Below are positions 1-19,818 of a stretch of DNA of 64,000 nucleotides, one piece after another. The translations under genes and the position numbers were made by a program. This DNA is from a virus. The first letter of the stretch is position 1. Every line of letters begins with the position of its first letter. A model generated the notes under the pieces. That model worked only from the letters and a program-made list of their open reading frames with translations, ran no database searches and was not told the origin of the DNA. The stretch lies in UHGV virus genome UHGV-1384413; one strand, 5' to 3'.

Positions 1-249
1 TTTGTGGAGCGGGAAGTCGCTGTAGTCTTTCTCCAGATAGTCAGCCATCCGGCGTAACGCCTCTGATAAACTGCAATCTGTATACTCGTTACAGTATTTC
101 ATCCAGTATTTAAGCACATACCCTTCAAAGGTATTAGTGCATTGGGACAAAACACCCCTGCAACGACCAGTCAGATGATCATGATCTAAACAAGGCTTAC
201 GAAGTGGTTCGCACAAGATTGGATCAAGACCATCCTGCTCTTCTGACAA
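1..249 (-). CDS. HNH endonuclease-like protein, partial (gene continues beyond window start; start codon uncertain, possibly TTG 247-249)
   Basis: Minus-strand frame open from 363 to the window edge, absent from the ORF track; translation contains PCLDHDHLTGRCRGVLSQCTN, the same DHDHxTGxxRG..C..CN motif as the HNH ORF at 15907-16476; no in-frame ATG upstream of the motif. Confidence 0.4.
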   Translation of the reverse strand, partial: MSEEQDGLDPILCEPLRKPCLDHDHLTGRCRGVLSQCTNTFEGYVLKYWMKYCNEYTDCSLSEALRRMADYLEKDYSDFPLHK

Positions 250-326
250 TTCTTTCCGAAAGTCGGCTATGTCCTTAGAATCTTTTAGCCACCCGCTATG
301 GACGGGGGCTTTGACAGCTTTCTTTC

Positions 327-956
327 TTATTTTACGCTTTGCGATAATCCCTCCAGATGCGCCCTACCTATCCAATAAGCATCTGCGAGATCGGCCTTAC
401 CTTGTACTAAGTTGATCCCATCCAGGAACCCGGGTTCAGATACTTCGCAGGCCTTAACCATCAACTTTTTATCCATCGTAACAGGTTTCTTCACAGTATG
501 CTCTTTACCTGTCCTTTTGTCAAGCTTTTTCTTCTCCTCAAAAGCAAGTTCTTCAGGAAGATGACTACGAGCAAACTTTTTGGCAGTTGTTGGTGTCACT
601 GTGTGAACCTTAAACAGGCCGTCATTTTCACAATCTGCTAAAGCATCCCAAAGCATAACTTCAAGACCGTAAAACAACCCAGCCAGTTCACGTGTGGCAT
701 CTCCTCGCGATCCGAAGGAGAGCCCTTCCATAACCACGGTGTCAACGCCGTGCGTGTGGATATAATATCTAACCTGTTTGCAGATCCAGTCAATACGCTC
801 AGCAGCTGTTGCAAAAGAAACCGTCCCTGGTTTCTTCTCTTTTGCAGATGAGCTTTGTGTGCGTAACACAACCTTATGAACAGGCTTACCATCGTCCCAT
901 ACAACACAGGCTGTGTGGGTAAGAGACTGGTCTATAGACAGCAGTCTTTCTCTCAT
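327..956 (-). CDS. RuvC-like Holliday junction resolvase
   Basis: 209 aa; RuvC-type acidic motifs LSIDQS (Asp), VVMEG (Glu), KADLADAYWIG (Asp..Asp) in the expected order; start overlaps upstream gene stop (ATGA). Confidence 0.6.
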   Translation of the reverse strand: MRERLLSIDQSLTHTACVVWDDGKPVHKVVLRTQSSSAKEKKPGTVSFATAAERIDWICKQVRYYIHTHGVDTVVMEGLSFGSRGDATRELAGLFYGLEVMLWDALADCENDGLFKVHTVTPTTAKKFARSHLPEELAFEEKKKLDKRTGKEHTVKKPVTMDKKLMVKACEVSEPGFLDGINLVQGKADLADAYWIGRAHLEGLSQSVK

Positions 957-1279
957 GCTGTTTCCTCTTCATCTGGAGAATAAGCTTTGTCTTTGAATAG
1001 CACAAGAGAGCAAAGCTTAACGTCTGTTTCCACGCTGGTAAACATGCATAACCGCTCGCCCTCAATCAGCTCGCAATCTTCTTTTAAAACAGCAGACCAT
1101 ACACGATCATCTGCGTAATCATCAGTATACAGGATGTATGCAATAGTGTCATCTTCATACAACCGCCACATACCTGTGGCAACAATAAATGTATTTTTTG
1201 TTTTAAGGGTCCCTGTTGTATGATCATCCTCAAAAACAGCTTCCATAATTGCATTATCTACAGAATTTTTAGTCATCAA
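953..1279 (-). CDS. hypothetical protein
   Basis: 108-aa ORF translationally coupled to flanking genes; no recognisable motif. Confidence 0.4.
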   Translation of the reverse strand: MMTKNSVDNAIMEAVFEDDHTTGTLKTKNTFIVATGMWRLYEDDTIAYILYTDDYADDRVWSAVLKEDCELIEGERLCMFTSVETDVKLCSLVLFKDKAYSPDEEETA

Positions 1280-2415
1280 ATTGCTCCAACATTTCTAAGA
1301 ACGTTAACAAGTTTTGTTTGATCATTGAATGTTCGCTTCATATACAAACAGTCAAAAATTATACTCATCCACTGGCCTACGGAAATCCTACGGTCGATAC
1401 CATTGAAATCGGTATACTTAACAGCACCTTTCGGAAACCATTTTTTATACTGATCAATGATTGTTAACCACATCTCTTTCGGTGTGCTGCACTGGGACAG
1501 CAAGGAGAATGCAGATGCATCTCCAAACTTCCCTTTACCAATAAGACCTTGGTAAGGCTTAATATTGTCAGCTGAGTCACCACACAGCATTTGATAACCG
1601 AAGAACAACATTCCATACCCACCAACATCGCCGTTTGGTTTCATGAATATGTTACCCATACCGTTATCAATGAGCATAGGTGTCTCTCTTACAAAATCAC
1701 CTTTATCGTTCCTCATCGGATCGAATACAAGCCCAGGAAGTGTTCGCTGGTCCTTATCTATAGAGATAATAAACTTGTTGAACTTTCCTGTTTTCTGGTA
1801 GTGGTTCCAACCTTCAAATTGCTGGATAGCTAACCAGTCGTCAGCTTCAATACCGTTGATCACTTGAGCGTTATATTGCTTTTGGAGATACTGTCTTGCA
1901 TCTTCAAGCAACAGTGGTCGAAGAGTATTGTTACGGTTGGCTTTATATCGTTCCGGCATGGGAAGATCTAGTCTGAAATTACCAGTACCCCCAAGCACTC
2001 CTACGCACCGATCTTCAGGAATACCGAGATAGTTAAGGACTGCATTAGCTTTACACTTAATTGTGTGCAAGCAGTTCTCTACAGGATCAGGGGTTTGGAT
2101 ATCCAAGACATCGAAATCTTCTCGTGTCCACGGAATAAACTCCTTACCAGCTTTTTTACATGCAGCTTCACGGTTGGTGTTCTCAGCCTTTAACCAACCA
2201 CCAACTGCGTTCTTCTGTCTCCCCCAAAACTCTGTTCGTGTTTTAAACACCTTCTTACGTCCTGAGGCTTTATGTGTTACCTCAATTGTCCTTTTTTCAC
2301 AACTTGCTGCAGCTTGATATGCAACCTGATCGAAGTCATAATAAACTATAGCGTCAGGTTCAAGAAGATCAGCTAGACAATCTATGGACTCAATAAGCGG
2401 ATATTCTCTACTCAA
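1276..2415 (-). CDS. 5'-3' exonuclease / flap endonuclease (FEN family)
   Basis: 379 aa; motifs GIEADDWLA, SIDKD and GDSADNIKPYQGLIG match the acidic and helix-hairpin-helix signatures of phage and Pol I 5'-3' exonucleases. Confidence 0.65.
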   Translation of the reverse strand: MSREYPLIESIDCLADLLEPDAIVYYDFDQVAYQAAASCEKRTIEVTHKASGRKKVFKTRTEFWGRQKNAVGGWLKAENTNREAACKKAGKEFIPWTREDFDVLDIQTPDPVENCLHTIKCKANAVLNYLGIPEDRCVGVLGGTGNFRLDLPMPERYKANRNNTLRPLLLEDARQYLQKQYNAQVINGIEADDWLAIQQFEGWNHYQKTGKFNKFIISIDKDQRTLPGLVFDPMRNDKGDFVRETPMLIDNGMGNIFMKPNGDVGGYGMLFFGYQMLCGDSADNIKPYQGLIGKGKFGDASAFSLLSQCSTPKEMWLTIIDQYKKWFPKGAVKYTDFNGIDRRISVGQWMSIIFDCLYMKRTFNDQTKLVNVLRNVGAI

Positions 2416-2716
2416 AGACCCTCCTGTTAGTTATTCTGCAAGATGGTTGGATGCTGTAATGGAATGCATCATCACTCTCTGCAATAAGCGACTCAACATC
2501 CCAATATTTTTCAAAAAGGAACGGATTAGACCCCCAGTGGTGGGTTATTTTCATCAAGGAGTCTGGTATCAGATAGCCACAGATCTTAATTACATCGCCA
2601 GGTTGAATGGTGTTTTCATGAAGGTTGCTTGCCTTCTTCAGGATCATACCTTTATGATTCTCGTTTGCATACAACTGGACAATATCTTTATCTTCAACAA
2701 TAAAAATTTTAAGCAT
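2408..2716 (-). CDS. hypothetical protein
   Basis: 102-aa ORF in the co-directional early block. Confidence 0.35.
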   Translation of the reverse strand: MLKIFIVEDKDIVQLYANENHKGMILKKASNLHENTIQPGDVIKICGYLIPDSLMKITHHWGSNPFLFEKYWDVESLIAESDDAFHYSIQPSCRITNRRVFE

Positions 2717-2775
2717 GTCTAGTTCTCCTAGTTTATAAATATCTGACTGATAATATCAGATTAATAGCACTTTTG

Positions 2776-3069: not shown

Positions 3070-3562
3070 GGTAACCCTCTATCCACGAAAAGTCAGTCTT
3101 CCATTCTGGAACTTTACTAAGCTCACGCCACTCTGCAAAGCAGTCTCGGTAATACGCCTCTGCCATACCCTTGGTGATCTTATTCACCTTAGCCAACTGA
3201 TTAACTGCCTGAGCATACTTTCCACGGATATTTGCTAACCCAGGATGCACCGATGTGTGACAATCTGGGCACAACGCTATCAGTCCGACAAGCCGGATCA
3301 CTCCCTCTTCGAAAGTGTAAAGTTCATGACACTCCACCGGATGTTTGCTGCCTTTACCACCACACACCTCACAAGTGTAGTTGGCTTCTCTGTAACACTT
3401 CTTACGGATCTTATCCCACTCACTCTTCTTCACAGCGTTTCTGAGGTTATTATACCAAGCTGTCTCCGGGATCAGTTGCACAATAAGCCTGCGTTCAGAC
3501 TTCATTAAACGTCCGTCTTCCATCAGCCCTCCAATTTGACCATACAATGACCATCTTTCCAC
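3059..3562 (-). CDS. zinc-finger protein, possibly HNH-like nuclease
   Basis: 167 aa; CEVCGG..HPVECHE..CPDCH Cys/His cluster; the HNH assignment is weak. Confidence 0.3.
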   Translation of the reverse strand: MERWSLYGQIGGLMEDGRLMKSERRLIVQLIPETAWYNNLRNAVKKSEWDKIRKKCYREANYTCEVCGGKGSKHPVECHELYTFEEGVIRLVGLIALCPDCHTSVHPGLANIRGKYAQAVNQLAKVNKITKGMAEAYYRDCFAEWRELSKVPEWKTDFSWIEGYLDG

Positions 3563-4492: not shown

Positions 4493-4616
4493 TTTTCATA
4501 CTCTCCAATTTACTCATAACTAACCCGATCAACAACACTGCATAATGTGGTTATGTAGGTGCCAATTGAAAAACCATCATTCAATTGGCTACCGTTACCT
4601 ACTAAACCTTCCTACA

Positions 4617-5900
4617 TCATTCCAGAACCTCCCAAGTGTCAGGGTTAACATTTCGGACGCAGATGCCGACAGGGAATTGGTAGTTGTTGTCTTCTGTCCT
4701 TGCTTGATATTTGAAGGTGACAAACTTGCCGATCATTTCCTGCATCCTGTCATAGCTACGCTCCTCGTGCGTGCCTTTCATCTTCATTTTAACAACGATA
4801 CCTTCCTTGTCAACGCAGATAAGAACACCTTCATCATTCTTATCTTTCTCAACGTCAATAACTTTCACCTCAGCATCGTTGAACTTTTTCCATTTCAATG
4901 CTTCAGATGTTCGCTGACCATATTCATATTTACCGCAGAAGTTACGCATGATAGTACCTTCATATCCTTCGGACATGAATACACCAACAGATTCTTCGCA
5001 ATGATCAACTGTGTACGCAAGCTCTGCGTCAACAACCTTGATATGGTCAAGCATCAGGGTGGTAATGGTATCTTCTGCATCCATAAGATCCTTGCATCGT
5101 CCAGATTCTGTTTCTGGATCCCACCATACCTTGTCACTAGGGATGTCGAAAATATGATACTCTAAGTCATAGCTACAGTACCCTCCGTAACGCAAATCAT
5201 CACGAATAGGCTCAACATCAACAGGAATATCTACCTTATTGAAGTTTTTGTATGTTGATAAGCCTGCCTTAATTGCGGCATGACGGCGTTTTTTATCTGC
5301 CTCGTAGTCTTTATCGATCTCGGCCTGAATCTCTTCCTGTGTGCGCCACCGTTTAGCAAGAGACACTATTTTCTGCAGAGGCAGACCATGAATATAGATC
5401 TCTCCGTCGAGCTGTTTAATCCCGGTGGTGAAGTGGAAAGAACGAAGTTGCTCCAGAAGCTTTCCTTGAATAGGGTAGGACTTATTACCACGGGAAATAA
5501 ATTTAGGCTCACCGTTTTGGAAAACAACCAGTAGACGAAGGCCATCTAATTTACGCAAAATCCAGCAAGGTAATTTAAGTGCCTTTCCACGCTTCAGGTA
5601 GTCATGCACCAACATGGGTAAAAGGTCAACACCCTGCTCGCAATCTTCCATATTTTCAACATATCCCAGACGGACTTGTTTTTCCCACTTACTGATCGCT
5701 TCCAGCTCAGCCTGTTGCTCAGCTGTAGTTTCATTGGCACGACCCACGTTCTTAGGTGTGCAGATCGTCTCTTTGTATTGCAGTTTACCATCAAGCTTGC
5801 CAAACTCTACAATAACCTTATCACCATCCGTGAATACTTTCCACTGCTGGTAGCTGCCATCTTTGTTCAGTGCGTACAGTGTTGTTTTGATCTGATGCAT
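4617..5900 (-). CDS. ATP-dependent DNA ligase
   Basis: 427 aa; adenylation motif I KLDG within ILRKLDGLRLLVVF; length and layout fit T7-type phage ligases. Confidence 0.75.
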   Translation of the reverse strand: MHQIKTTLYALNKDGSYQQWKVFTDGDKVIVEFGKLDGKLQYKETICTPKNVGRANETTAEQQAELEAISKWEKQVRLGYVENMEDCEQGVDLLPMLVHDYLKRGKALKLPCWILRKLDGLRLLVVFQNGEPKFISRGNKSYPIQGKLLEQLRSFHFTTGIKQLDGEIYIHGLPLQKIVSLAKRWRTQEEIQAEIDKDYEADKKRRHAAIKAGLSTYKNFNKVDIPVDVEPIRDDLRYGGYCSYDLEYHIFDIPSDKVWWDPETESGRCKDLMDAEDTITTLMLDHIKVVDAELAYTVDHCEESVGVFMSEGYEGTIMRNFCGKYEYGQRTSEALKWKKFNDAEVKVIDVEKDKNDEGVLICVDKEGIVVKMKMKGTHEERSYDRMQEMIGKFVTFKYQARTEDNNYQFPVGICVRNVNPDTWEVLE

Positions 5901-6169
5901 TACTCAGCCTCTTCCTTAAAAATTTTAAACATCTCTTCTTTGCTCATTACCAACCAGTCTCCCATAAAGTCAACTAACCAATCCCCTTGGTACAAGACCA
6001 GGTTACCAAACGGCTCGACAAGCTCACACATGCGAAGAATATCTCTGGTCCGAACAGGTGACGGTGTAAACACACCTGTATCAATCCACCGTTGTAGATC
6101 AGATACTGATGAAGAGCTTCCGTCAAACTGGTGTGCTTCTACAGGTTTAGCAAGATTAAATAACGGCAT
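5900..6169 (-). CDS. hypothetical protein
   Basis: 89-aa ORF whose start overlaps the ligase stop. Confidence 0.35.
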   Translation of the reverse strand: MPLFNLAKPVEAHQFDGSSSSVSDLQRWIDTGVFTPSPVRTRDILRMCELVEPFGNLVLYQGDWLVDFMGDWLVMSKEEMFKIFKEEAE

Positions 6170-6464
6170 TGCAGTCCTCCTTCTCTAATAAGTCTTTTAT
6201 CGGGTAAACAAGCAGGTGCGGATCGTAATAATTTATAGTTTTATTCTGCCACACTATGAACTTAATTACAACTAAATTTACCACATCTTTATCTCCATGC
6301 AGTCCAACACACAGATTTGTCCATATTTTGTGGTTGAATACTTTGCTGTCGATGTAGATCTTAGTGTCAAACTTATCCTCTATCCTACCTATAAGTTTAA
6401 CCAATTCTTTCATCTGATCCCCAAACACAGCATCGTTTTCAAGATCTCTGGAGTGCTTGTACAT
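6156..6464 (-). CDS. hypothetical protein
   Basis: 102-aa ORF. Confidence 0.35.
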   Translation of the reverse strand: MYKHSRDLENDAVFGDQMKELVKLIGRIEDKFDTKIYIDSKVFNHKIWTNLCVGLHGDKDVVNLVVIKFIVWQNKTINYYDPHLLVYPIKDLLEKEDCNAVI

Positions 6465-6505
6465 AACTTTCTACCTCACTTGCATACTTTCCTAAACAAG
6501 TAAAG

Positions 6506-6526
6506 CCGGGATCGCCCCGGCTATGT
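6506..6526 (-). terminator. GC-rich hairpin between minus-strand genes (possible terminator or attenuator)
   Basis: gccggg..atcgcc..ccggc inverted repeat between the MazG-like gene and the next gene; weak T-tract. Confidence 0.3.
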
Positions 6527-6528
6527 TA

Positions 6529-7242
6529 TTAAATATATTCTGTTACATCCTTGAAGCTTGAAGGCTTCATAATCTTACCTTTACTGTCGAGGAATATGAT
6601 AACTTTATTTCCGTTGTAGAATTCTTCTTTAGCAACAAAACCTTCATAGCGACCATCAAAGCGTCGCTCAAGATCTTTAATCTCCAACTCGATAAGTTGT
6701 TCAGCAGGCATATCTGCACTGGCACCGTGTGAATACCGCAGATGGTTGACGCGTGCAAACTTGCTGTCATTAGATTTTAGAACCTTCCGCATCATCCCGC
6801 ACACATCACCGCGAAGCTGGAACAGCAAAGCTGTTGACAACTCTGCTAAGCGGTAAGCAGACGCTCTTTGCTTAGAGGTATTTTTCGCAGCGATCAGTGT
6901 ATCATAAAATTCACCGATCTTAAACTTAAGACCTCGCGGATTATCAAACAGGTTTGACCACTTTTCATGGTTATCGTTAACAAGATAAGCGGCATAACTT
7001 GTGACAACGTGAAGATCGCAGGCCTCTTTTAGGAGATGATCCCCACCATCACCTTTCTCCAACTCTTCCAAAACTTCATTGAACTCTTCCTCAATGAAAC
7101 TCAGCTGAAGTTCGAATGGTGTGTATGATTTTTTCACTTTAGCTGCTACACGGTTCCAATTTTCCACCCAGTTGGCAGACCAAAGGTAGTTTTCAGGCTG
7201 AGACAGTTTTTCCAAGTTGTCAATCAGTTTAGTATTCAGCAT
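6529..7242 (-). CDS. MazG-like nucleotide pyrophosphohydrolase domain protein
   Basis: 237 aa; EEEFNEVLEELEKGDGGDHLLKEACDL matches the MazG/HisE EExxE..D metal-binding helix pattern. Confidence 0.5.
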   Translation of the reverse strand: MLNTKLIDNLEKLSQPENYLWSANWVENWNRVAAKVKKSYTPFELQLSFIEEEFNEVLEELEKGDGGDHLLKEACDLHVVTSYAAYLVNDNHEKWSNLFDNPRGLKFKIGEFYDTLIAAKNTSKQRASAYRLAELSTALLFQLRGDVCGMMRKVLKSNDSKFARVNHLRYSHGASADMPAEQLIELEIKDLERRFDGRYEGFVAKEEFYNGNKVIIFLDSKGKIMKPSSFKDVTEYI

Positions 7243-7256
7243 TAAAAGGCCTCCGC

Positions 7257-8018
7257 TTACAGTTCCATAAAGTTTTCTACGATGTCAATGAATGTTTTAT
7301 CAGAGAAAGCGTCAACAGCCCCGTTAAACCAAACTGGGATGCCGCGATCCTCATACTGGTAAATGTCACTACGTGAAATGCCATTCTCCCCTAAATGCTG
7401 TGAGTCGTATTTGTTAACGATCAGCAGTTTGGTCCCCTTATTACAGGCAGGGAATAGCTCCCAGTTAAAATTGATAACTGTGTTGGAGCACCCTATAAGG
7501 ATAACCATATCATTGCTCGTCAGAGAAGTCAACAGGTCATACATGTCTGTATACTTTGGAGCTACTTCTCCGAAGAACACGACATTAGGCTTAACCCAAG
7601 TATACTTGCTTGCATCTACCTCAGAGTATCCAATGTCTTTAATGACGTTACTCCCTTCATCATCCTCGTAGACTATTTCTGGCAAATATCCGTGGACATG
7701 TAAAATATCTTCATGTTTTACACCAGCACGCTCCAGCAAATCATCTACATTGGTTGTCAGGTTGATCACGCGACCAGACCAGCGGGAATACCATTCAGCG
7801 ATCCGGAGATGTGCAAGGTTAGGATCAACACTGCCCAGAGCTACACGCCGTGCATTGTAAAAGTCATGAACCTTATAGTAGTTCTTGGCAAAGGTGTGGA
7901 TGTTACACACCTCATCGATGCTGAAATTCTCCCACATTGCAGTGCCACCAGATCGGAAAGTTGGGATACCAGATTCAGCGCTCAAACCAGCACCGGAGAT
8001 AATGATCAGTCGTCGCAT
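7257..8018 (-). CDS. Sir2-family (sirtuin-like) NAD-binding protein
   Basis: 253 aa; GAGLSAESGIPTFR, TTNVDDL, VHGY, KPNVVFFGE, IGCSNTV and LLIVNK match sirtuin motifs in order; no CxxC zinc-ribbon insert. Confidence 0.6.
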   Translation of the reverse strand: MRRLIIISGAGLSAESGIPTFRSGGTAMWENFSIDEVCNIHTFAKNYYKVHDFYNARRVALGSVDPNLAHLRIAEWYSRWSGRVINLTTNVDDLLERAGVKHEDILHVHGYLPEIVYEDDEGSNVIKDIGYSEVDASKYTWVKPNVVFFGEVAPKYTDMYDLLTSLTSNDMVILIGCSNTVINFNWELFPACNKGTKLLIVNKYDSQHLGENGISRSDIYQYEDRGIPVWFNGAVDAFSDKTFIDIVENFMEL

Positions 8019-8026
8019 AAGTGTCC

Positions 8027-8377
8027 TCAGTAGATGTTTTGTTTAATCTCTATTCCAAACTTTTTAAACGAGTCAGCAGCAAGCATGAATTTACGAGCAG
8101 CTGATGGGTTAGAAGTATGCACGAAAATCTTCACGTTGTCAACTACAGGAGGCTTACCAAATATAAATTTTTCCTCCAGCATAGATAGGCAATCGTACCC
8201 TTCAAATACCTCTCCAAGGTCGTTGTCCATGTGCCACTCAGAAACGCGCCTGTAGAGCTTTCCCTTATCGTTAATAAAATCCATAAACTCAGAGGAATTC
8301 TTTAGCCAAAGAGCATCTGGGAGCCCATAATTTGACGGATCTCTCAAGTCATCCAGCCACACAATCAACTTCTTCAT
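8027..8377 (-). CDS. hypothetical alpha/beta protein, receiver-domain-like pattern (speculative)
   Basis: 116 aa; MKKLIVWLDDLRD..HTSNP..K pattern; translationally coupled (ATGA overlap) to the RNA ligase gene upstream. Confidence 0.35.
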   Translation of the reverse strand: MKKLIVWLDDLRDPSNYGLPDALWLKNSSEFMDFINDKGKLYRRVSEWHMDNDLGEVFEGYDCLSMLEEKFIFGKPPVVDNVKIFVHTSNPSAARKFMLAADSFKKFGIEIKQNIY

Positions 8378-9288
8378 TGCATATAGTCCTCGTTGTGGAA
8401 ATAGTAGTCAAGTATCTCACGACGTTCTTGCTCCAGGAGGCAGTTCCACACATCTTCTGTGTAATTGCTACGAATGAAGTTTACCATGCCATAAAACTCT
8501 TCGTCAACACGTTTAAAGATATCATCATCCCAAATCTTCCAAGCTTTACCCCTCATTACGGCCTTCCGTGCCAAATAGTATGGAGACTTGATCTTCAGCT
8601 GCAAATCATAAGGGTAGTAAGGCTTACGAATCATATACCCTTCACCTCTTGTTTCTGCAGCTAATTCTTTTGCATAGCTGAACGGAATTTCACGCACAGT
8701 GTGAGGACGTTTTGCACCAAGGTATTTGGCAATCCCATCTAAAGCTGCTTCTGGTAGCATTATTCCAGAATCATTATATCTGCAACCTATCAAATATGCG
8801 CCATGATCTTCCTGAACAATATGCGGATCTGAAGGGTGGCAAATTTCAAACATGAATGTCATGTTTTCATGGCCCATAACCCTCTTGATAAGATCTAAAT
8901 TACCACATTGCTCCTGGATTGTTTCTTTTGCGAGGTTACAATATGGAGAATCAAGAGACCCGGTTGTTGAGAACAATAGTTCACCTTTATGAGATGATAC
9001 CACACCAAGGAATCCGTTCTTTTTCTCTACCGCCGTCACAAGTTTATTGTCAGGCAGGTTGGTGGAATTTTCTCCCAAGTTAAACACTTTTGTGAAGGGC
9101 CATGCCACAACATTTCCTTCATTACCGACAACAATGCCTCGGCACTCCAGCAAACGAGGAGACAAATGCCATAAATTGTTGTAGAATACTTTTCTGGCAT
9201 ATTTATAGATCTTTAACCCAAGATCCGGGTAATATCTGCTGGTTACAAGACCTTTGTCAACTAGGTCGTCTGCATTAAAATACTTCAT
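8374..9288 (-). CDS. ATP-dependent RNA ligase-like nucleotidyltransferase (Rnl2-like)
   Basis: 304 aa; motif I EKKNG (Kx[DN]G), motif IV-like EGYMIRKP and motif V-like LKIKSP, as in T4 Rnl2-type ligases recalled from memory. Confidence 0.6.
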   Translation of the reverse strand: MKYFNADDLVDKGLVTSRYYPDLGLKIYKYARKVFYNNLWHLSPRLLECRGIVVGNEGNVVAWPFTKVFNLGENSTNLPDNKLVTAVEKKNGFLGVVSSHKGELLFSTTGSLDSPYCNLAKETIQEQCGNLDLIKRVMGHENMTFMFEICHPSDPHIVQEDHGAYLIGCRYNDSGIMLPEAALDGIAKYLGAKRPHTVREIPFSYAKELAAETRGEGYMIRKPYYPYDLQLKIKSPYYLARKAVMRGKAWKIWDDDIFKRVDEEFYGMVNFIRSNYTEDVWNCLLEQERREILDYYFHNEDYMQ

Positions 9289-9352
9289 TATACATTCCTC
9301 ATTTGTTATTTTGTCCCTTTATCCTGCCACACAAATAACTTGGTGTCAACAC

Positions 9353-9381
9353 TTGAAATTAACAAAACAGTTAGGTATACT
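9353..9381 (+). promoter_or_regulatory. sigma70-like promoter upstream of kinase gene
   Basis: TTGAAA, 17 bp, TATACT; about 30 bp upstream of the 9410 start. Confidence 0.45.
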
Positions 9382-9409
9382 ATCATTAAAATTAAAACGG
9401 AGAGTTACT

Positions 9410-9820
9410 ATGTCTAAAATGCTATATATCGTGCGTGGTCTACCAGGGTCTGGCAAATCAACACTGGCAAATGCGCTATCTTTAGAAGGTCTGTATCCAC
9501 ATTTTGAGAACGATATGTTCTGGTACGACGATGACGGCAATTACAATTGGGATGCAAGTAAAGTAACACTTGCAGCAAAATGGTGCAAAGATAACGTAGA
9601 AGATATGATGCGTATGGGCTACGACCGTATCGTGGTAAGTAATACGTTTACAAAAGAAAAATATGTGCAAGAATATATTGACATGGCGATCAGTCATGGA
9701 TATAGTTATACCGTGATCGTGGTTGAAAACCGCCATGGTAATAAAAGCATTCATGATGTTCCAGACAGGGTTGTGGATCGTATGGAACGCCAGCTTAAAA
9801 ACTGCATTAAACTTAAATGA
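9410..9820 (+). CDS. polynucleotide kinase (P-loop)
   Basis: 136 aa from ATG 9410 with RBS acggagag; Walker A GLPGSGKST at the N-terminus; the track start 9254 is rejected. Confidence 0.6.
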   Translation: MSKMLYIVRGLPGSGKSTLANALSLEGLYPHFENDMFWYDDDGNYNWDASKVTLAAKWCKDNVEDMMRMGYDRIVVSNTFTKEKYVQEYIDMAISHGYSYTVIVVENRHGNKSIHDVPDRVVDRMERQLKNCIKLK

Positions 9821-9827
9821 GGAATGT

Positions 9828-10382
9828 ATGAAATACTTTGTAACAAGCGACACACACTTTCTCCACCAGCGGGTAATGGAGTTCGACTCATGTCAAAAAC
9901 ACAGATCTCAGTATGATCACAATCTTGACAGTATGAATGCGGGAATCATCACCAAGTGGAACTCTGTTGTGTCACCTGCAGACACTGTGTTTCACTTGGG
10001 GGATATTGCGTGCACTAATGATAAGAATATCAACAAATTGCTTCCAGATGTTCTAAATATGTTGAACGGACATATTATTCTTGTTCGTGGTAACCATGAC
10101 ACAAGGACGACTGTCAGAATTATGAAAGAGTTCGGTCATGAGGTTGTAGATTATTACGAGCTTCGCCACAACAAGAATTTGATCTGTATGAGCCATTACC
10201 AGTTTGCAAAGTGGAACAGAAAGCCTCACGGATCAGTCCAACTGTTCGGTCATGCTCACGGAACCACACAGCAGTTGTTTGGCAGGCAGTTTGATGTCGG
10301 TTGGGATGTGTGGGGGAGACTCTTACCATTAGAAGAGGCATACCGTATTGCAATGAGTCTTGCTATTGACAGCGGGGAGTAA
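9828..10382 (+). CDS. metallophosphoesterase (calcineurin-like), candidate RNA 3'-phosphatase / 2',3'-cyclic phosphodiesterase
   Basis: 184 aa from ATG 9828 with RBS gaggaa; complete MPE signature SDTHF, HLGDI, GNHD, GHAHG. Confidence 0.7.
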   Translation: MKYFVTSDTHFLHQRVMEFDSCQKHRSQYDHNLDSMNAGIITKWNSVVSPADTVFHLGDIACTNDKNINKLLPDVLNMLNGHIILVRGNHDTRTTVRIMKEFGHEVVDYYELRHNKNLICMSHYQFAKWNRKPHGSVQLFGHAHGTTQQLFGRQFDVGWDVWGRLLPLEEAYRIAMSLAIDSGE

Positions 10383-13324: not shown

Positions 13325-13399
13325 GCCCTGTTAGCTTAGTGGATAAAGCAGCGGCCTTCTAAGCCGTTGACACTGGTTCGAGTCCAGTACGGGGTGCCA
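13325..13399 (+). tRNA. tRNA-Arg (anticodon TCT)
   Basis: Manual cloverleaf: acceptor gccctgt/acggggt, D stem gctt/aagc, anticodon loop cuUCUaa, T loop ttcgagt, CCA encoded. Confidence 0.7.
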
Positions 13400-13403
13400 A
13401 ATT

Positions 13404-13490
13404 GGGGAGTTATCCCGTAGAGGTAGCGGTGTAGACTGTAAATCTATTGTCATTGCGACTCGGGTGGTTCGACTCCACCACTCCCCACCA
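13404..13490 (+). tRNA. tRNA-Tyr (anticodon GTA), long variable arm
   Basis: Acceptor ggggagt/actcccc, anticodon loop cuGUAaa, variable arm tgtcattgcgactcg, T loop ttcgact, CCA encoded; D stem imperfect. Confidence 0.65.
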
Positions 13491-13604
13491 AATTTACATT
13501 TTTAAATGCATAAATTATACAGATAATGACATTGATATTTATCGTCGTTTATACTAGTCACTAACTGCTCGAAAATCAGTGTCATTATCAGTGTAATTTA
13601 TAAA

Positions 13605-13695
13605 GGAGAGTAGGGAGCAATGGTGCTCAAGCGGTCTTGAAAACCGTCCCATTGAGGACGACTTGATGATGGTTCGATTCCATTACTCTCCGCCA
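13605..13695 (+). tRNA. tRNA-Ser (anticodon TGA), long variable arm
   Basis: Acceptor ggagagt/actctcc, anticodon stem gcggt/accgt with loop cuUGAaa, 20-nt variable arm, T loop ttcgatt, CCA encoded. Confidence 0.65.
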
Positions 13696-13793
13696 TATTG
13701 TTAACCTTGTAATTAAGCGAAAGCCGGAAGCAGAACCGGATTATCAAATGTTACAGTCGTCATCGCCGACTAGCAACATGGTTAACATTATTC

Positions 13794-13890
13794 GCTAGGT
13801 AAGCCCTTTGGCAAGGGCGAGGATTTTTAATCCTGAAAATAGACGAGGTAGTCGTTGAATACATAGGTGGTTCGATTCCATCACCTAGCA
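13794..13890 (+). tRNA. atypical tRNA-like gene (best fit anticodon TTT, Lys-like) with ~30-nt variable region
   Basis: Perfect 7-bp acceptor gctaggt/acctagc and canonical T arm ggtgg-ttcgatt-ccatc, but the anticodon arm is 4 bp plus a G.G pair around loop uuUUUaa, followed by a 30-nt stem-loop region; no CCA. Confidence 0.4.
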
Positions 13891-13896
13891 CCTTTT

Positions 13897-13972
13897 GCTG
13901 ATGTAGCACAATTGGCAGTGCAATTGATTTGTAATCAATAGGTTGCAGGTTCAAGTCCTGCCATCAGCACCA
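13897..13972 (+). tRNA. tRNA-Thr (anticodon TGT)
   Basis: Acceptor gctgatg/catcagc, anticodon stem attga/tcaat with loop uuUGUaa, T arm gcagg-ttcaagt-cctgc, CCA encoded. Confidence 0.7.
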
Positions 13973-13973
13973 T

Positions 13974-14048
13974 GGCCCTGTAGCTGGAAGGTTCAAGCAA
14001 GCGACTCATAATCGCCAGACGGTGGTTCAATTCCACCCAGGGCCACCA
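13974..14048 (+). tRNA. tRNA-Met or tRNA-Ile2 (anticodon CAT)
   Basis: Acceptor ggccctg/cagggcc, anticodon loop cuCAUaa, T arm ggtgg-ttcaatt-ccacc, CCA encoded. Confidence 0.65.
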
Positions 14049-14059
14049 AATAATAAATA

Positions 14060-14136
14060 CTCCGCGTAGCTCAGCTTGGTAGAGCGCCTGATTTGGGATC
14101 AGGAGGTCGAGTGTTCGAATCACTCCGTGGAGACCA
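14060..14136 (+). tRNA. tRNA-Pro (anticodon TGG)
   Basis: Acceptor ctccgcg/cgtggag, D arm gctcagcttggtagagc, anticodon stem cctga/tcagg with loop uuUGGga, CCA encoded. Confidence 0.7.
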
Positions 14137-14957: not shown

Positions 14958-15241
14958 GAGTTACTGCACTGGTTGTTTTGTGCTTGTTATTGTGTGGGTG
15001 TGCAACCAGCGTTGAGAGAGAATACAAGATTGACCCTCCGGATGTAGGAAGGTTGATTGTTAAACCTCCCGAGGGTGCTATGAAACCACCTGCTAAAGCT
15101 ATCCCTTTGAAGAAAGGTGCGCCAGATGCGGTGAATTCTGGCATTATGAGGGATAATAACCTGTCTTGTAGTAATGATAGGGCTAAATTGATCATTTTGC
15201 AAGACTATATAAGAACACTGTTTCCAAAGGAGAGAGGTTAA
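14954..15241 (+). CDS. o-spanin-like lipoprotein
   Basis: 95 aa; signal peptide ending in lipobox-like LLCGC, proline-rich mature part; coupled to the i-spanin gene. Confidence 0.5.
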   Translation: MRVTALVVLCLLLCGCATSVEREYKIDPPDVGRLIVKPPEGAMKPPAKAIPLKKGAPDAVNSGIMRDNNLSCSNDRAKLIILQDYIRTLFPKERG

Positions 15242-15666
15242 TGTCTAAGATTTACGGACCGTGTTCTGAAAAGCAGAAGATGATCCTAGAGAACGATGCA
15301 GATATTTTGGTGATCGGAGGTGCAGCTGGGTCTGGCAAGTCGTTCCTCTTGCAGCTAATGCCGCTTAAAATTATTGATGACCCGCACAGCTCTGTGGTTA
15401 TGTTCCGAAGAACAACTCCCCAGTTGGAAGGTGAGGGTGGGCTATGGCCTAAAGCAGTAGCTATTTACAGTGATCTGCCTGAAAACATTAAACCAAAGTT
15501 CAGAGAGAAGGATCATAAGTTTATTTTTCCACGGTTTGATCCGAGCACTGGCAAGTGGGATAGGAGCAAAAAGGGGGCCGTTGTAAAATACTGCCACATG
15601 GAGTATGTCCAAGATAAGCTTAACCATCAAGGCCTTGAGTACACCATGGTTTGCTTCGATGAGGGT
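15241..15666 (+). CDS. terminase large subunit, ATPase N-terminal part (exon 1)
   Basis: Walker A GGAAGSGKS; ORF ends straight after Walker B MVCFDEG with TAA at 15667. Confidence 0.7.
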
Positions 15667-16550
15667 TAATTTGTAGCTCTCGTAAAACCTCCCTAATTGC
15701 GGGGAAATCTTTATTATTGACACCACCAACCTGTCATGGTAACATGATAGAGGCTTCGAAGAGAGATCGAAGGTATGGTAACAGTGTGTTAATTTAGATA
15801 ATCCGCAGCGAAGCATCCGAGAGGATGAACGTTCAACGACTAGTCGAAAGACGTAGAATCAAGCGATTCGAAACGGGAGGGTGAATGTGTAATACTAAAA
15901 AAATGTATGGATTGCCAAAGAGTTCTGCCTCTTGATGATTTCTTTTTATCATCTAAGAGCAAGGATGGATACTCAGGTACATGCAAGGAATGCTATATGT
16001 ACTACAGGAAGAATGGATCTCGTAGAAACAAAAATATGGTTAAGAGAGATGATGCAGCATCTTTTGTTCAAGACTTGCTGAAGAAAGGTGAGCTTTTTGA
16101 ATGTAAATCTTGTCATGAAAGTATGCTTGCTGATAGTTTTTACACAAAGCGTGACTATGGTAAAGTGTATCTGGTTACGAACAGGTGTAAGATGTGTGAA
16201 AAGTTTTATCAGATTGAGAAGAAATTTCACATAACAAAAGATGAATACTATCGTTTACTCTCAGATCAAGATCATAAGTGTGCCATTTGTAGAATATCTC
16301 TTGATGAGTATAGGACGCAAGGGTACAGAGATTTCTTTTGTGTTGATCATGACCATAAAACTGGTGCTGTAAGAGGGTTGCTTTGTGATAAATGCAACAG
16401 AGCTTTAGGGTTCTTCCAAGAGGATGAGGAAACCATTCTTAGAGCAGCAGAGTATTTGCACATTCATAAGATATAGTCTGGTCTGCATGGAGACATGCAG
16501 CTGCCTGAAAATGGCGGGGCAAGACTAGCGACCTTGCCCGAACATAAACG
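15667..16550 (+). mobile_element. probable group I intron (boundaries approximate) carrying an HNH homing endonuclease ORF
   Basis: Interrupts the terminase reading frame right after Walker B; ORF-free flanks 15667-15906 and 16477-16550 contain hairpins such as gggcaag/cttgccc; stop at the 5' junction, candidate omega-G at 16550. Confidence 0.5.
15907..16476 (+). CDS. HNH homing endonuclease
   Basis: 189 aa; several CxxC pairs and canonical FCVDHDHKTGAVRGLLCDKCNRALG HNH core. Confidence 0.75.
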   Translation: MDCQRVLPLDDFFLSSKSKDGYSGTCKECYMYYRKNGSRRNKNMVKRDDAASFVQDLLKKGELFECKSCHESMLADSFYTKRDYGKVYLVTNRCKMCEKFYQIEKKFHITKDEYYRLLSDQDHKCAICRISLDEYRTQGYRDFFCVDHDHKTGAVRGLLCDKCNRALGFFQEDEETILRAAEYLHIHKI

Positions 16551-17672
16551 ACGCAATTCGAATGGGAGCAGATAGACTACCTGATGTCTCGTTTGCGATC
16601 TCAGTCAAAGTATCCATCAAGAATGGTTATCAGCTGTAACCCCGACTCAGAACACATGCTTGCCAAACTGGTTAGGTGGTGGTTGGACGATGAAGGGTAT
16701 CCAGATCCGGAGAAATGTGGTAAGAAAAGATATTTTATCCGACGCGACGGTGAATTTATTTGGGGAGACTCTAAAGAAGAGTTAATAGAGAAATACACCA
16801 CGGTTAACGGACTGGGTGTGGAGATCAAGCCAAGACCGTTGTCATTCTCGTTTATAGGCGCAACAATTTTCGATAATCCTGTCTGCTTGAGAGACAACCC
16901 AGAATACCTTGCTTTCCTTGAAGGTCTGCCAGAGCTTGAAAAAGCCCAGCTTCTTCATGGAAACTGGTTTGCCAAACCTGAGGGTGCAAACTATTTCCAA
17001 AGATCTTTCCTTCGGGATGCCGATAGAGTACCTCTTGGATCAGTATCTTGCAGGGCATGGGATAAGGCAGGAACCGAGAGAACTTCCGGTAATAAATTTC
17101 CTGACTTTACTGCCAGTGTTAAGGTAAGTAAAGATAGCGACGGCTTTTATTACCTGTCCGGGGATTATTGTCCTGAGAACGTGGATGACGGTAGGTATTC
17201 CACAGGTCTGGAAGGAAAGTTCTGTAAAAAGGCTGGGGAACGAGATGTGATCATCAGGAAACAGGCGCAGTTTGATGGAGATGATTGCATAATCGTATTT
17301 TCTGTGGACCCCGGTCAGGCAGGTAAGAGTGAGTTCTTAACCTCGTCCAGATCCTTGCTCGCCGAAGGGTTCAGGGTTGAAGAAGATCCAATGCCTTCCA
17401 ACAAATCTAAGCTGACAAGGTTCTCACCTTTTGCCAATCTTGCCCAACAAGGAATGGTGAGGATTGTAAAATCCAGTTTCCATCCTGACACTCTGGAAGC
17501 ATTTCTGACTGAACTTGAAAAGTTCAACGGGGAAAGATCAACATTTAACAGAAAAGACGACTGGGCCGACTGTGTAGCTTCTGCGATTAATTTCCTGGAG
17601 AAAGAGGAGGTAGCGCTGCCTTGTGTGATTCCATCAATCTCATCACCTTCTATGTTCAAGCGTTTTATCTAA
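16551..17672 (+). CDS. terminase large subunit, nuclease C-terminal part (exon 2; 5' boundary approximate)
   Basis: Frame open from 16548; TQFEWEQIDYLMSRLRS..VISCNPD continues the ATPase C-motif region, then a nuclease-domain-like region FSVDPGQAGKSEF. Confidence 0.6.
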   Translation, partial: TQFEWEQIDYLMSRLRSQSKYPSRMVISCNPDSEHMLAKLVRWWLDDEGYPDPEKCGKKRYFIRRDGEFIWGDSKEELIEKYTTVNGLGVEIKPRPLSFSFIGATIFDNPVCLRDNPEYLAFLEGLPELEKAQLLHGNWFAKPEGANYFQRSFLRDADRVPLGSVSCRAWDKAGTERTSGNKFPDFTASVKVSKDSDGFYYLSGDYCPENVDDGRYSTGLEGKFCKKAGERDVIIRKQAQFDGDDCIIVFSVDPGQAGKSEFLTSSRSLLAEGFRVEEDPMPSNKSKLTRFSPFANLAQQGMVRIVKSSFHPDTLEAFLTELEKFNGERSTFNRKDDWADCVASAINFLEKEEVALPCVIPSISSPSMFKRFI

Positions 17673-17774: not shown

Positions 17775-19331
17775 GTGTCCAAAAAGAACCGCAGGAAACA
17801 CAACGCCACAGCCAAAACTGTGAATAAATCTGGGAACGCAGGCGCACCAACTCATAATGTTCGTATGAGTGAGATCGGTTCTGGCGCACTTTCCCAAATT
17901 ATGGCAGAATCACAATCTATGATGGTTGAGGAATTGCGTTGGCCTCAACTGATTGCCACAGTGGAGACTATGAAATGTGATTCCACAGTTGCTACTGCCT
18001 TAGATACAAAATATGTTTTCATCACGAAAGCATTCAATGATTTTAAGATCCTTTATAATGTTAAAAGTGAAGACTCTAAGAAAGCCGCCGAGCTTATAGA
18101 GTATTCTTTGCGTAATTTGGCAAACCAACAAACTCTTCGAGATATTGCAAGAAGCGCAGCTACCTTTAACGAGTATGGTTTTTCACTGTTTGAGAAAGTA
18201 TACCGCAGAGAGAAAGAAGGTAAATACGCCGGGATGCTTCTTATTGATAAGATTGCGTTCCGACCACAGGCCAGTTTGTCCAGATCAGAGCCGTTTGTCT
18301 TTGACAAGAATAGTAGAACACTGACAGGTATTTATCAATCACCTAATGCATTTCTAAACACGCAGAATGCACGCTGGGCTGGTCCTCTCGCTGCAATGCC
18401 TTCAAAAGGCTTTAATGAGCCTGAAATTTTCATCCCTGCTAAAAAGCTTATGCTCATGACTCTGTCAGGAACAGAATCTAACCCTGCAGGTGTGTCACCG
18501 ATGATAGGTTGCTACAGATCTTTCCGTGAGAAAGTTTTGATTGAAAACCTTGAGGTTGTTGGCTGTTCCAAAGACCTTGGTGGTGTTCTTGAGCTGAAAA
18601 TTCCTTCCAATATTTTGAACAAGGCCAGTATTGACCCGAATTCAATGGAAGGGAGAATGGTTGCAGATCTTATGCTTGACGCAGCAAACGCCCATAGTGG
18701 GGAGCAAAGTTTCTTTATACTTCCGTCTGATAGAGATAAGTCTGGTAAAGAGCTTTACTCCATGACCCTGAAGGGGGTTGATGGTATGGGTAAGCAGTAT
18801 TCCACTAAAGATTTGATTGATGCCCGTAAGAAGGCGATTCTTGACCGTTTCGGTGCTGGCTTTATTAACCTTGGTAACGATAACGTTGGATCCTTCTCTC
18901 TGTCTGAGTCAAAACAATCTATTCATGGTCATTTTGTTCAGCGTGATATAGATATTATCACTGAGGCCTTCAATAAAGATCTTATTCCACAGCTTCTGGC
19001 ATTGAATGGTATCATCCTTGAAGATGATGATATGCCTAAACTGAAACCTGGTCTGATTGAAGAAGTGGACATGGAGAGCTTCTCCAAGTTTGTCCAGAGG
19101 ATCGGTGCTGTAGGTTACTTGCCAAAAACTCCTGCAGTAATTAATAAGATTCTTGAAGTAGGTGGGTTTGATGAAAGATTTGACGAGGACATGGATCAGG
19201 AAGAGCTAATGAAGCTCTTGGGCCAGGACATCAGCAGGGCTGGCGATGGAATGGCTGCAGGATCCACTGGCAACGGCACTTCTAAGATGTCATCAACCAG
19301 AGATAATTCCATATCCAACATGGAAAATTAA
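17775..19331 (+). CDS. portal protein (putative; GTG start)
   Basis: 518 aa directly after terminase and before scaffold and capsid; acidic C-terminus; call is by position and size. Confidence 0.5.
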   Translation: MSKKNRRKHNATAKTVNKSGNAGAPTHNVRMSEIGSGALSQIMAESQSMMVEELRWPQLIATVETMKCDSTVATALDTKYVFITKAFNDFKILYNVKSEDSKKAAELIEYSLRNLANQQTLRDIARSAATFNEYGFSLFEKVYRREKEGKYAGMLLIDKIAFRPQASLSRSEPFVFDKNSRTLTGIYQSPNAFLNTQNARWAGPLAAMPSKGFNEPEIFIPAKKLMLMTLSGTESNPAGVSPMIGCYRSFREKVLIENLEVVGCSKDLGGVLELKIPSNILNKASIDPNSMEGRMVADLMLDAANAHSGEQSFFILPSDRDKSGKELYSMTLKGVDGMGKQYSTKDLIDARKKAILDRFGAGFINLGNDNVGSFSLSESKQSIHGHFVQRDIDIITEAFNKDLIPQLLALNGIILEDDDMPKLKPGLIEEVDMESFSKFVQRIGAVGYLPKTPAVINKILEVGGFDERFDEDMDQEELMKLLGQDISRAGDGMAAGSTGNGTSKMSSTRDNSISNMEN

Positions 19332-19398
19332 AAATTATCAACACAGGGGGTTGCAAAACCTCCTTTGGCGTGATAAAATAATCCACATGGGGAATAAG

Positions 19399-19818
19399 AT
19401 GCCACAGGAAGAAATGATTTCCTACGAAATCATCTACGAACCGGACACTAAAGACGCTCACGGTGAGTGGATGAGTAAAGACACCATCAAAAAGGCTAAA
19501 GATAATTGGGACGCAGCATACGCCGCAGGCCTAGTTTCTGAAAACCTTTTCCACTTGACCTCTACAGATGCTTTCACTATTGAAAAGACGTGGATTCAAG
19601 AAGAGTTTGATGTTGTAGTAATTGGCACTGAGCAGGTCATCAAGGCTGGCTCTTGGGTTGCTAAAGTTAAATACAATAATCCTGAATTATGGGAAGCTAA
19701 GAAGGCTGGCATTGTTGGTGGCCTAAGCATTCAGGCAACAGGTAATGTTGATGAAGAAACTGGTGAAATTACCAACGTAAACTTCGGGATCAGTGTTGTA
19801 GAAGAGGGCAATGAATAA
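19399..19818 (+). CDS. head morphogenesis protein (in the position of a prohead protease)
   Basis: 139 aa from ATG 19399 (RBS gggga); track start 19246 overlaps the portal gene and is rejected. Confidence 0.3.
   Translation: MPQEEMISYEIIYEPDTKDAHGEWMSKDTIKKAKDNWDAAYAAGLVSENLFHLTSTDAFTIEKTWIQEEFDVVVIGTEQVIKAGSWVAKVKYNNPELWEAKKAGIVGGLSIQATGNVDEETGEITNVNFGISVVEEGNE

Follow-up and report, generated by a model that had tools for sequence, protein, structure and literature searches.

Phage T5 and other phages have been named as carriers of Sir2 (sirtuin) genes, and loss of the zinc ligands was reported for the Sir2/CobB proteins of the KVP40-type Vibrio phages phiSt2 and phiGrn1 (Skliros et al., 2016; PMC5107563). 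Deacetylation of acetyl-CoA synthetase (Acs) was proposed for the Vibrio phage homologue in that study, from modelling and transcript data only. A later computational study described a phage sirtuin neighbourhood, type 2, whose prototypes are Escherichia phage V5 and Proteus phage Mydo (Iyer, Burroughs, Anantharaman and Aravind, 2022; PMC9503650, section 3.7.3). Its gene set comprises a T4-like RNA ligase, a cyclic-phosphate processing receiver domain protein (cREC), a nucleotide kinase, a pyrophosphatase of the MazG superfamily and a calcineurin-like phosphoesterase. The sirtuin was predicted to act in RNA 2'-phosphate removal in the manner of KptA/Tpt1, with partner enzymes that open cyclic phosphates or process ADP-ribose cyclic phosphate (PMC9503650). 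Here we analyze the sirtuin gene of virus genome UHGV-1384413 in a stretch of 64,000 nucleotides, referred to below as the window. The window belongs to an rV5-like coliphage of the lytic type. It is 99.5% identical to Escherichia phage vB_EcoM-ECP32 over 4 kb and 95-97% identical to FV3 and rV5 derivatives, and thus represents another isolate of the V5 prototype group. The gene family, the zinc loss, the RNA-ligase neighbourhood and the leading hypothesis have all been published already. Our analysis adds a mapping of the lost zinc ligands (Y117, D120 and a deleted second knuckle), a TTN signature, a four-gene unit bounded by a terminator-like hairpin and the observation that, across the family, the ligase adjoins the sirtuin in a minority of cases.

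A CobB/SIRT5-type sirtuin without zinc ligands

The open reading frame is a real sirtuin of the CobB/SIRT5 type that lacks zinc ligands, and its match to the family is far beyond chance. The Pfam profile SIR2 (PF02146) aligns with residues 9-181 over profile positions 1-178 of 180 (E=7.6e-27; 94.8 bits, cutoff 24), and PHROG 2162 ('Sir2') is matched with E=1.2e-108. A sequence search of the PDB places E. coli CobB and human SIRT5 nearest (E about 5e-21). An AlphaFold model built from a 32-sequence alignment (pLDDT 89.3, pTM 0.87) consists of a single domain with the Sir2 fold, a Rossmann domain together with a small domain. Foldseek places CobB first (TM 0.84-0.86, target-normalised) and SIRT5 next, and its top 50 matches are all sirtuins (50/50). 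The NCBIfam cutoffs for CobB are not reached, with scores of 102.2 against 320 for NF040867 (equivalog) and 120.9 against 243 for NF001753 (subfamily). Fusion partners of distant homologues, which were just tandem SIR2, WG repeats and LRR, were uninformative.

The set of NAD-binding and catalytic residues is complete (GAGxS, GIxxFR, the N and D of TQN[IV]D, the His and FGE), and the sole change is from Q to T89. Residues G9-A10-G11, S16, G17, F21-R22, N90, D92, H109-G110, F149, E151, G176, S178 and N202 are invariant in 32 of 32 clade members. The class III Y-x-x-R motif is present as well: F53-Y54-N-A-R57-R58 aligns with FYNARR in CobB and FYHYRR in SIRT5. Y54 shows no variation, and R57 shows none within the close clade and is kept in at least 90% of distant relatives. 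The equivalent residues in SIRT5, Y102 and R105, form its acyl-carboxylate-binding motif. Features shared with CobB and SIRT5 are thus GAGxS...GIxTFR, Y-x-x-R, the N and D of TQN[IV]D, the catalytic HG and FGE. The identity to CobB is nevertheless only 30%, TTN stands in place of TQN, and the four zinc ligands are absent. The protein also carries GCSNxVINF where CobB and SIRT5 have the tunnel motif GTSxxVYP, and its C-terminal segment is extended. The sirtuins of Vibrio phages phiSt2 and phiGrn1 are homologous (Vibrio phage matches have 44-47% identity over residues 3-202) and likewise lack the zinc ligand, but the Vibrio forms have a shorter C-terminus and no RNA-ligase neighbours. Together, the sequence and the model indicate that the protein is an active-looking member of a phage-specific sirtuin clade that descends from CobB/SIRT5-type (class III) enzymes.

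The Cys4 zinc site of the small domain (CxxC...CxxC) was looked for in the protein and is absent. The protein has three Cys residues in total (C38, C177 and C192), none of which falls between residues 110 and 176, and it has no CxxC motif. When it is aligned with zinc-bearing relatives, Y117 and D120 take the places of C1 and C2 in the first knuckle, and the second CxxC knuckle is deleted, being about 5-8 residues shorter. The segment from H109-G110 to K143-P144 has 33 residues, versus ~36 in E. coli CobB, and is modelled as strands 110-118, 124-128 and 142-146. An 'IGY' motif in the hairpin of this module is common to zinc-less and zinc-bearing relatives, so the module is ancestral and the ligands alone were lost.

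The Q to T change in TQN[IV]D co-varies with the loss of Cys. Among 88 distant representatives the counts are 29/6 versus 8/45 (odds ratio 27, p=3e-10, with no phylogeny correction), and 29 of the 35 that bear TTN have at most two Cys. The loss also occurs in bacteria, where 41 of 73 relatives, mostly Bacteroidales, have 0-1 Cys in the zinc segment; the Cys4 site is therefore not universal in the sirtuin family. TQN is found in all 73 bacterial relatives with a readable motif and TTN in none of them (0/73), so that TTN is the signature of the phage clade in the sample examined. The closest homologue in bacterial genomes is at most 40% identical, all readable ones are of the TQN type, and no RNA-repair neighbour was found beside them. 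Chromosomal CobB-like sirtuins in Bacteroidales (L097-L159; Muribaculaceae, Bacteroides and others) include a large group with a Cys-free zinc segment, e.g. HGELMKVRAIDDETKVYTLKPEALDTTPDTIIDGHHVRPHIVFFQE. Zinc-free sirtuins seem common in this order, and conserved His and Asp residues might stand in for the ligands.

Much of the initial annotation of this gene, which was made from the letters of the window, agrees with these results. It had proposed a 253-residue sirtuin-like protein of a lytic phage at the interval listed in Table 1, with the NAD-binding motifs in order; the frame and its length are confirmed, the strand, which it did not give, is minus, the motif positions are exact, and the phage is of the lytic type. 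It had also asked for a structure prediction to be compared with the CobB fold, and the predicted fold is Sir2-like with CobB as the best match. The absence of a CxxC..CxxC zinc-binding insert was correct with regard to the ligands and to CxxC, but the module itself is kept, with its 33 residues and three modelled strands. The zinc-less state, which it singled out, is real; it had already been published for phage Sir2/CobB (PMC5107563) and is shared by the 41 bacterial relatives mentioned above.

The four-gene unit and its relatives in other phages

The sirtuin gene is the third of four genes on the minus strand, in the order Rnl1 RNA ligase, cREC, sirtuin and MazG-like protein (Table 1). The Rnl1 and cREC genes overlap by 4 bp, 8 bp lie between the cREC stop and the Sir2 start, and 14 bp lie between the Sir2 stop and the MazG-like start. 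A Shine-Dalgarno sequence is present at both the cREC-Sir2 and the Sir2-MazG gap. The MazG-like gene is followed by a 64-bp gap with the hairpin, a strong one. These four genes form a tight, probably co-expressed unit closed by a terminator-like hairpin. All five partners of the type 2 neighbourhood lie within 3 kb of the sirtuin, with the MazG call made here by PHROG match alone. This assignment is weak, as the protein has no Pfam, NCBIfam or PDB sequence match, and is accompanied by a published call (PMC9503650). PDB sequence searches with the RNA ligase and the MazG-like protein gave no matches, and hence none that would class the ligase as one requiring a 2'-phosphate. An NCBIfam scan of the sirtuin neighbours gave weak sub-threshold matches only.

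Table 1. Features of the window around the sirtuin gene, and the sirtuin region of phage 7t3
Feature	Position	Strand	Details
Sir2 (sirtuin) gene	7257..8018	minus	253 aa; class-III-like
Sirtuin motifs (residues)	9-22; 88-94; 108-111; 147-151		GAGLSAESGIPTFR; TTNVDDL; VHGY (catalytic His = H109); VFFGE
T4 Rnl1-family RNA ligase	8374..9288	minus	304 aa; PF09511 E=1.1e-14; PHROG 562 E=1.9e-65; TIGR02308 E=4.9e-10 (below cutoff)
cREC (cyclic-phosphate processing receiver domain)	8027..8377	minus	116 aa; PF20274 E=4.5e-14, 53.3 bits vs cutoff 27
MazG-like nucleotide pyrophosphohydrolase candidate	6529..7242	minus	237 aa; PHROG 671 E=5.4e-22
Terminator-like hairpin	6504..6522	minus	8 pairs (6 of them G-C) and a T-rich tail; immediately follows the stop codon of the MazG-like gene
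ATP-dependent DNA ligase	4617..5900	minus	downstream of the terminator
P-loop kinase, polynucleotide-kinase-like	9404..9820	plus, divergent	138 aa; AAA_33 PF13671 E=2.9e-10; PHROG 2071, PHROG 505 polynucleotide kinase
Calcineurin-like metallophosphoesterase	9828..10382	plus, divergent	184 aa; candidate 2',3'-cyclic phosphodiesterase or 3'-phosphatase
Seven phage tRNA genes	13325..14136	plus	about 3 kb from the cassette; possible repair substrates or beneficiaries
7t3 sirtuin region (positions in L081)	4513-4959 and 6107-6670; also 1-2739		sirtuin flanks; NAD-salvage genes upstream

The sirtuin family comprises 842 proteins at E<=1e-5 and 1014 phage records. With a clade profile at E<=1e-10, 2028 cluster representatives (50% identity) are collected, cellular sirtuins included. 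We surveyed the context of 85 sirtuin loci by phmmer with the window's neighbour proteins and found Rnl1 near the sirtuin in 12 of them; the corresponding counts are 9 for cREC, 13 for the kinase, 15 for the phosphoesterase and 14 for the MazG-like protein. The loci with this type of neighbourhood, where the gene set recurs in 12-15 IMG/VR loci, are from rV5-like phages, Mydovirus-type phages and one further group of ~147 kb. Mydovirus KpS11 has the same gene set as the rV5-like phages in a changed order, suggesting that the linkage is under selection. In Mydovirus-type phages the DNA ligase gene directly follows Sir2. Genes of the Prs family (ribose-phosphate pyrophosphokinase-like) and NAMPT-like genes also stand beside the ligase-cREC-sirtuin cassette in these phages (positions 1-133 of the Klebsiella phage KpS11 locus, L083, and a NAMPT-like frame about 8 kb upstream in L023, L024, L028, L031 and L059), a pair that presumably resembles the NARP1 NAD+ reconstitution pathway.

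Other lineages have other partners. In 30 loci of T5-like phages, and in two gene orders, a HAD_SAK_2 phosphatase ('Swiss Army Knife RNA repair'; PF18143, E=1e-19) is located within 0.8-1.3 kb of the sirtuin. A NAMPT-like gene is found within 8 kb of the sirtuin in 12 of the 85 loci and in several lineages. In the Salmonella jumbo phage 7t3 the sirtuin is flanked by a 2H phosphodiesterase of the Acb1 family (PF23474, 60.7 bits versus a cutoff of 27) and a Nudt16-like Nudix enzyme, with NAMPT and NMNAT/ADPR pyrophosphatase genes just upstream, 3.7 kb from the sirtuin. The Acb1 family is named after an anti-CBASS nuclease, so RNA repair need not be the task of the '2H' partner in jumbo phages, and the 7t3 region resembles an island for NAD or anti-defence functions more than one for RNA repair. 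In the phi92-like Escherichia phage ECO340P2 (L090, 1940-2215), one of the small early genes 4 kb upstream of the sirtuin encodes an Acb2/Tad1 hairpin domain, which belongs to a family of anti-CBASS/anti-Thoeris sponges. About 30 loci have no recognisable partner, and phi92-like phages, L091, Vibrio phages and SE131 are among such members. Several records assigned to other hosts, 'Campylobacter phage' A116, A140 and A150 and 'Listeria phage LM 4-14-1' (for example MG065676.1, MG065674.1, MG065639.1 and OR848287.1), carry rV5-like or T5-like coliphage sequence, with protein identities to the window's genes of 91-97% (rV5-like) and 58% (T5-like). They are probably mislabelled or contaminant assemblies, and they make the host range look wider than it is.

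A tblastn search with E. coli KptA against the window and a whole rV5-like genome returned no homologue (best E=0.93), and the annotation of the rV5-like genome lists no KptA. There are 98 phage records with KptA, of which at most 3 could be Escherichia or Salmonella phages. In the KptA neighbourhoods of two jumbo phages no ligase, cREC or 2H cassette was recognised, and therefore an argument from displacement is not possible.

A few further observations concern the surroundings of the unit. The kinase frame may start at a TTG at 9254 (188 aa) or at the ATG at 9404 (138 aa, as annotated in related phages); with the longer form (9254-9820, plus strand), the kinase gene and the divergent RNA ligase gene would overlap at the 5' end of the latter. 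Promoter-like sites are located at 9353-9386. Within the tRNA cluster, ARAGORN reports a 99-nt 'tRNA-???' with a four-base anticodon (atcc) at 13794-13892 on the plus strand, for which a tRNA bearing an insertion or intron, a pseudo-tRNA and a species akin to frameshift suppressors are possible identities. In the record of the rV5-like phage HMD-6 (PQ505080.1), the terminase large subunit is annotated as two coding sequences with a gap of ~350 bp, corresponding to about 15230-15660 and 16010-17100 (plus) in the window by offset from 18235-18663 and 19012-20100 of locus L001; an intron, an intein or an annotation split could account for this. The anaerobic ribonucleotide reductase of HMD-6 is interrupted by an HNH homing endonuclease. 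The same genome carries a Macro-domain gene and a second polynucleotide kinase gene (3103-3561 and 113322-113795), outside the window and far from the cassette. A Macro domain could handle either sirtuin product, O-acyl-ADP-ribose or ADP-ribose 1''-phosphate.

Candidate roles of the phage sirtuin

On operon structure, RNA end repair is the best-supported role for this phage, and the most specific mechanism that fits sirtuin chemistry is 2'-phosphate removal in the manner of Tpt1. Tpt1/KptA enzymes depend on NAD+, release nicotinamide and follow a two-step course in which the ribose 2''-OH attacks, in parallel with the chemistry of sirtuins. Tpt1/KptA is thus the proposed functional analogue of the phage sirtuin, and both are found in phages. 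Their folds and sequences are unrelated (there is no tblastn similarity, and the sirtuin has the Sir2 fold), so any relation would be one of functional analogy. Judging from gene context, we tentatively regard NAD+-dependent 2'-phosphate removal of the Tpt1/KptA kind, within a tRNA/RNA heal-and-seal pathway that counters host anticodon nucleases, as the most likely role of the sirtuin. Several lines suggest it: the fold and its residues, the operon, the neighbours, the link to HAD_SAK_2 in T5-like phages, Y54 and R57 as an anion-binding motif, the absence of KptA, the tRNA cluster and the published prediction for V5.

With the fold, the intact NAD-binding and catalytic residues, the operon structure and the recurrence of the neighbours as observations, we infer an RNA substrate and the following chemical steps. 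The kinase would phosphorylate the 5'-OH end of the broken RNA, and the 2',3'-cyclic phosphate would be opened by cREC or the phosphoesterase. Rnl1 would then seal the break. The sirtuin would transfer the leftover 2'-phosphate to NAD+, with attack of a phosphate oxygen on C1'' and departure of nicotinamide. H109 would activate the ribose 2''-OH, releasing ADP-ribose 1'',2''-cyclic phosphate, which cREC and the MazG-like enzyme may degrade. A more far-reaching proposal is that the phage sirtuin clade has no protein substrates at all. Its members would be the first sirtuins to act on a nucleic-acid phosphate and a non-homologous replacement of Tpt1/KptA, with the Y-x-x-R site re-used for phosphate and the Q to T change tuning the ribose pocket. 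We consider this proposal doubtful.

A number of observations weigh against a Tpt1-like role. Gene context is its entire basis, and by sequence and modelled fold the protein resembles lysine deacylases and no RNA enzyme. The activities of cREC and HAD_SAK_2 are computational predictions. The kinase, the phosphoesterase and Rnl1 suffice for a T4-type (Pnkp/Rnl1) pathway that leaves no 2'-phosphate. Rnl1 stands beside the sirtuin in a minority of loci (12/85). In phi92-like phages Rnl1 and cREC adjoin each other while the sirtuin is about 30 kb off, and Rnl1 is present in 177 Pseudomonas phage records although Pseudomonas is not among the top sirtuin genera. T5-like phages are largely devoid of this ligase, as illustrated by the Salmonella phage records (289 with the sirtuin and 14 with Rnl1); a role after ligation therefore fails there unless another ligase serves. 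Of the three neighbourhood types on which the 2022 argument drew, one is weakened by the Acb1-type '2H' enzyme of 7t3, and a role in anti-defence or ADP-ribose metabolites stays in play. The mutual exclusivity of sirtuin and KptA was considered as evidence and rejected, since only ~2 records with both would be expected by chance (98 x 1014 / 50697). Finally, we found no biochemical characterisation of any phage sirtuin in the open-access literature, subscription journals not being covered.

A strong rival, even if we judge it rather unlikely, is that the protein is a CobB-like NAD+-dependent lysine deacylase, probably favouring acidic acyl groups (succinyl and malonyl), which strips marks from host or phage proteins during infection. 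It might, for example, re-activate enzymes whose catalytic lysines are acylated, and the adjacent RNA and DNA ligases use a lysine-AMP intermediate. CobB and SIRT5 are the nearest proteins in both sequence and fold, every catalytic residue is kept, and the FYNARR motif is identical to that of CobB and aligned with Y102/R105 of SIRT5. A deacylase would also accord with the many family members that have no recognisable RNA-repair neighbour (phi92-like, L091, Vibrio and SE131), and the Cys-less sirtuins on Bacteroidales chromosomes indicate that zinc loss implies no new function. Acs deacetylation has, in addition, already been proposed for the Vibrio phage homologue (PMC5107563). However, this reading leaves the tight and recurrent coupling to cREC/Rnl1 or HAD_SAK_2 unexplained. 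The Q to T change is phage-specific, is absent from the bacterial relatives (TTN in 0/73) and affects a motif that contacts the nicotinamide ribose. The NCBIfam CobB scores are far under their cutoffs (102 versus 320 and 121 versus 243), and the host already encodes CobB.

The remaining alternatives place the sirtuin in NAD+ biology. It could serve phage NAD+/ADP-ribose metabolism or counter-defence, as an ADP-ribosyltransferase on a host protein or nucleic acid or as an enzyme acting on NAD-derived small molecules, together with 2H/Acb1-like, Nudix/MazG and cREC enzymes and NAD-salvage genes. Pointing this way are the Acb1-family and Nudix flanks in 7t3 with NAMPT and NMNAT/ADPR pyrophosphatase genes 3.7 kb away, the recurrence of NAMPT-like genes within 8 kb (12/85 loci), the Acb2/Tad1-hairpin gene 4 kb upstream in ECO340P2 and the Macro-domain gene that the rV5-like genome also has. 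We nevertheless consider it improbable. No NAMPT or Acb1-like gene lies near the sirtuin in the window and none is annotated in the rV5-like genome, and linkage to NAD salvage is expected for any NAD-consuming enzyme and thus does not discriminate. We also see no known immune signal with a nicotinamide leaving group that a sirtuin could use. ADP-ribosylating sirtuins of the SirTM type have an adjacent Macro partner; the neighbourhood here has no Macro gene, and the only one annotated in the related genome is about 50 kb away. Like SirTM, the SIR2 NADases of bacterial defence (ThsA, DSR1/DSR2 and SIR2-HerA) have the Sir2 Rossmann core in common with the phage protein, together with the catalytic Asn and His. 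An effector of the ThsA/DSR/SIR2-HerA type that depletes NAD+, for host shut-off or superinfection exclusion, was an option in the initial annotation; Sir2 domains can be NADases, and the catalytic N90 and H109 are present. We rejected this reading on the PADLOC and Pfam results and regard it as very improbable. PADLOC gave no meaningful match, just one partial match of 13 bits to an unrelated model (PDC-S65), and SIR2_2 (PF13289) scores 14.1 bits, below its cutoff of 24.5. Fold and sequence are closest to deacylases, with CobB and SIRT5 the nearest. The protein is a single domain of 253 aa with no sensor or oligomerisation domain, and related phages co-encode NAD salvage, which would be self-defeating for NAD depletion. 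The statement of the initial annotation that activity is not decidable from sequence alone is upheld. Its identification of a sirtuin was right, although a view confined to the reading frame missed the informative operon of Rnl1, cREC and MazG-like genes, and the role it left open had already been predicted for this exact neighbourhood (PMC9503650).

Compared with the published RNA-repair sirtuin clade (PMC9503650; PHROG 2162), the window has the same phage type and gene set and shows no substantive difference.

Implications for phage and sirtuin biology

As a discovery the locus is ordinary. It adds no new object, and earlier papers already cover the feature, what is peculiar about it and its likely role. 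The gene itself is abundant, with its 1014 phage records including T5-like and rV5-like therapeutic candidates. Were the protein simply a deacylase, it would provide a case in which a virulent phage edits the acyl-proteome of its host. If the published prediction is true, sirtuin chemistry would reach from acyl-lysine to RNA phosphate, and phages would hold a complete, yeast-like pathway of tRNA repair, in which ends are healed, sealed and dephosphorylated, built of unrelated parts.

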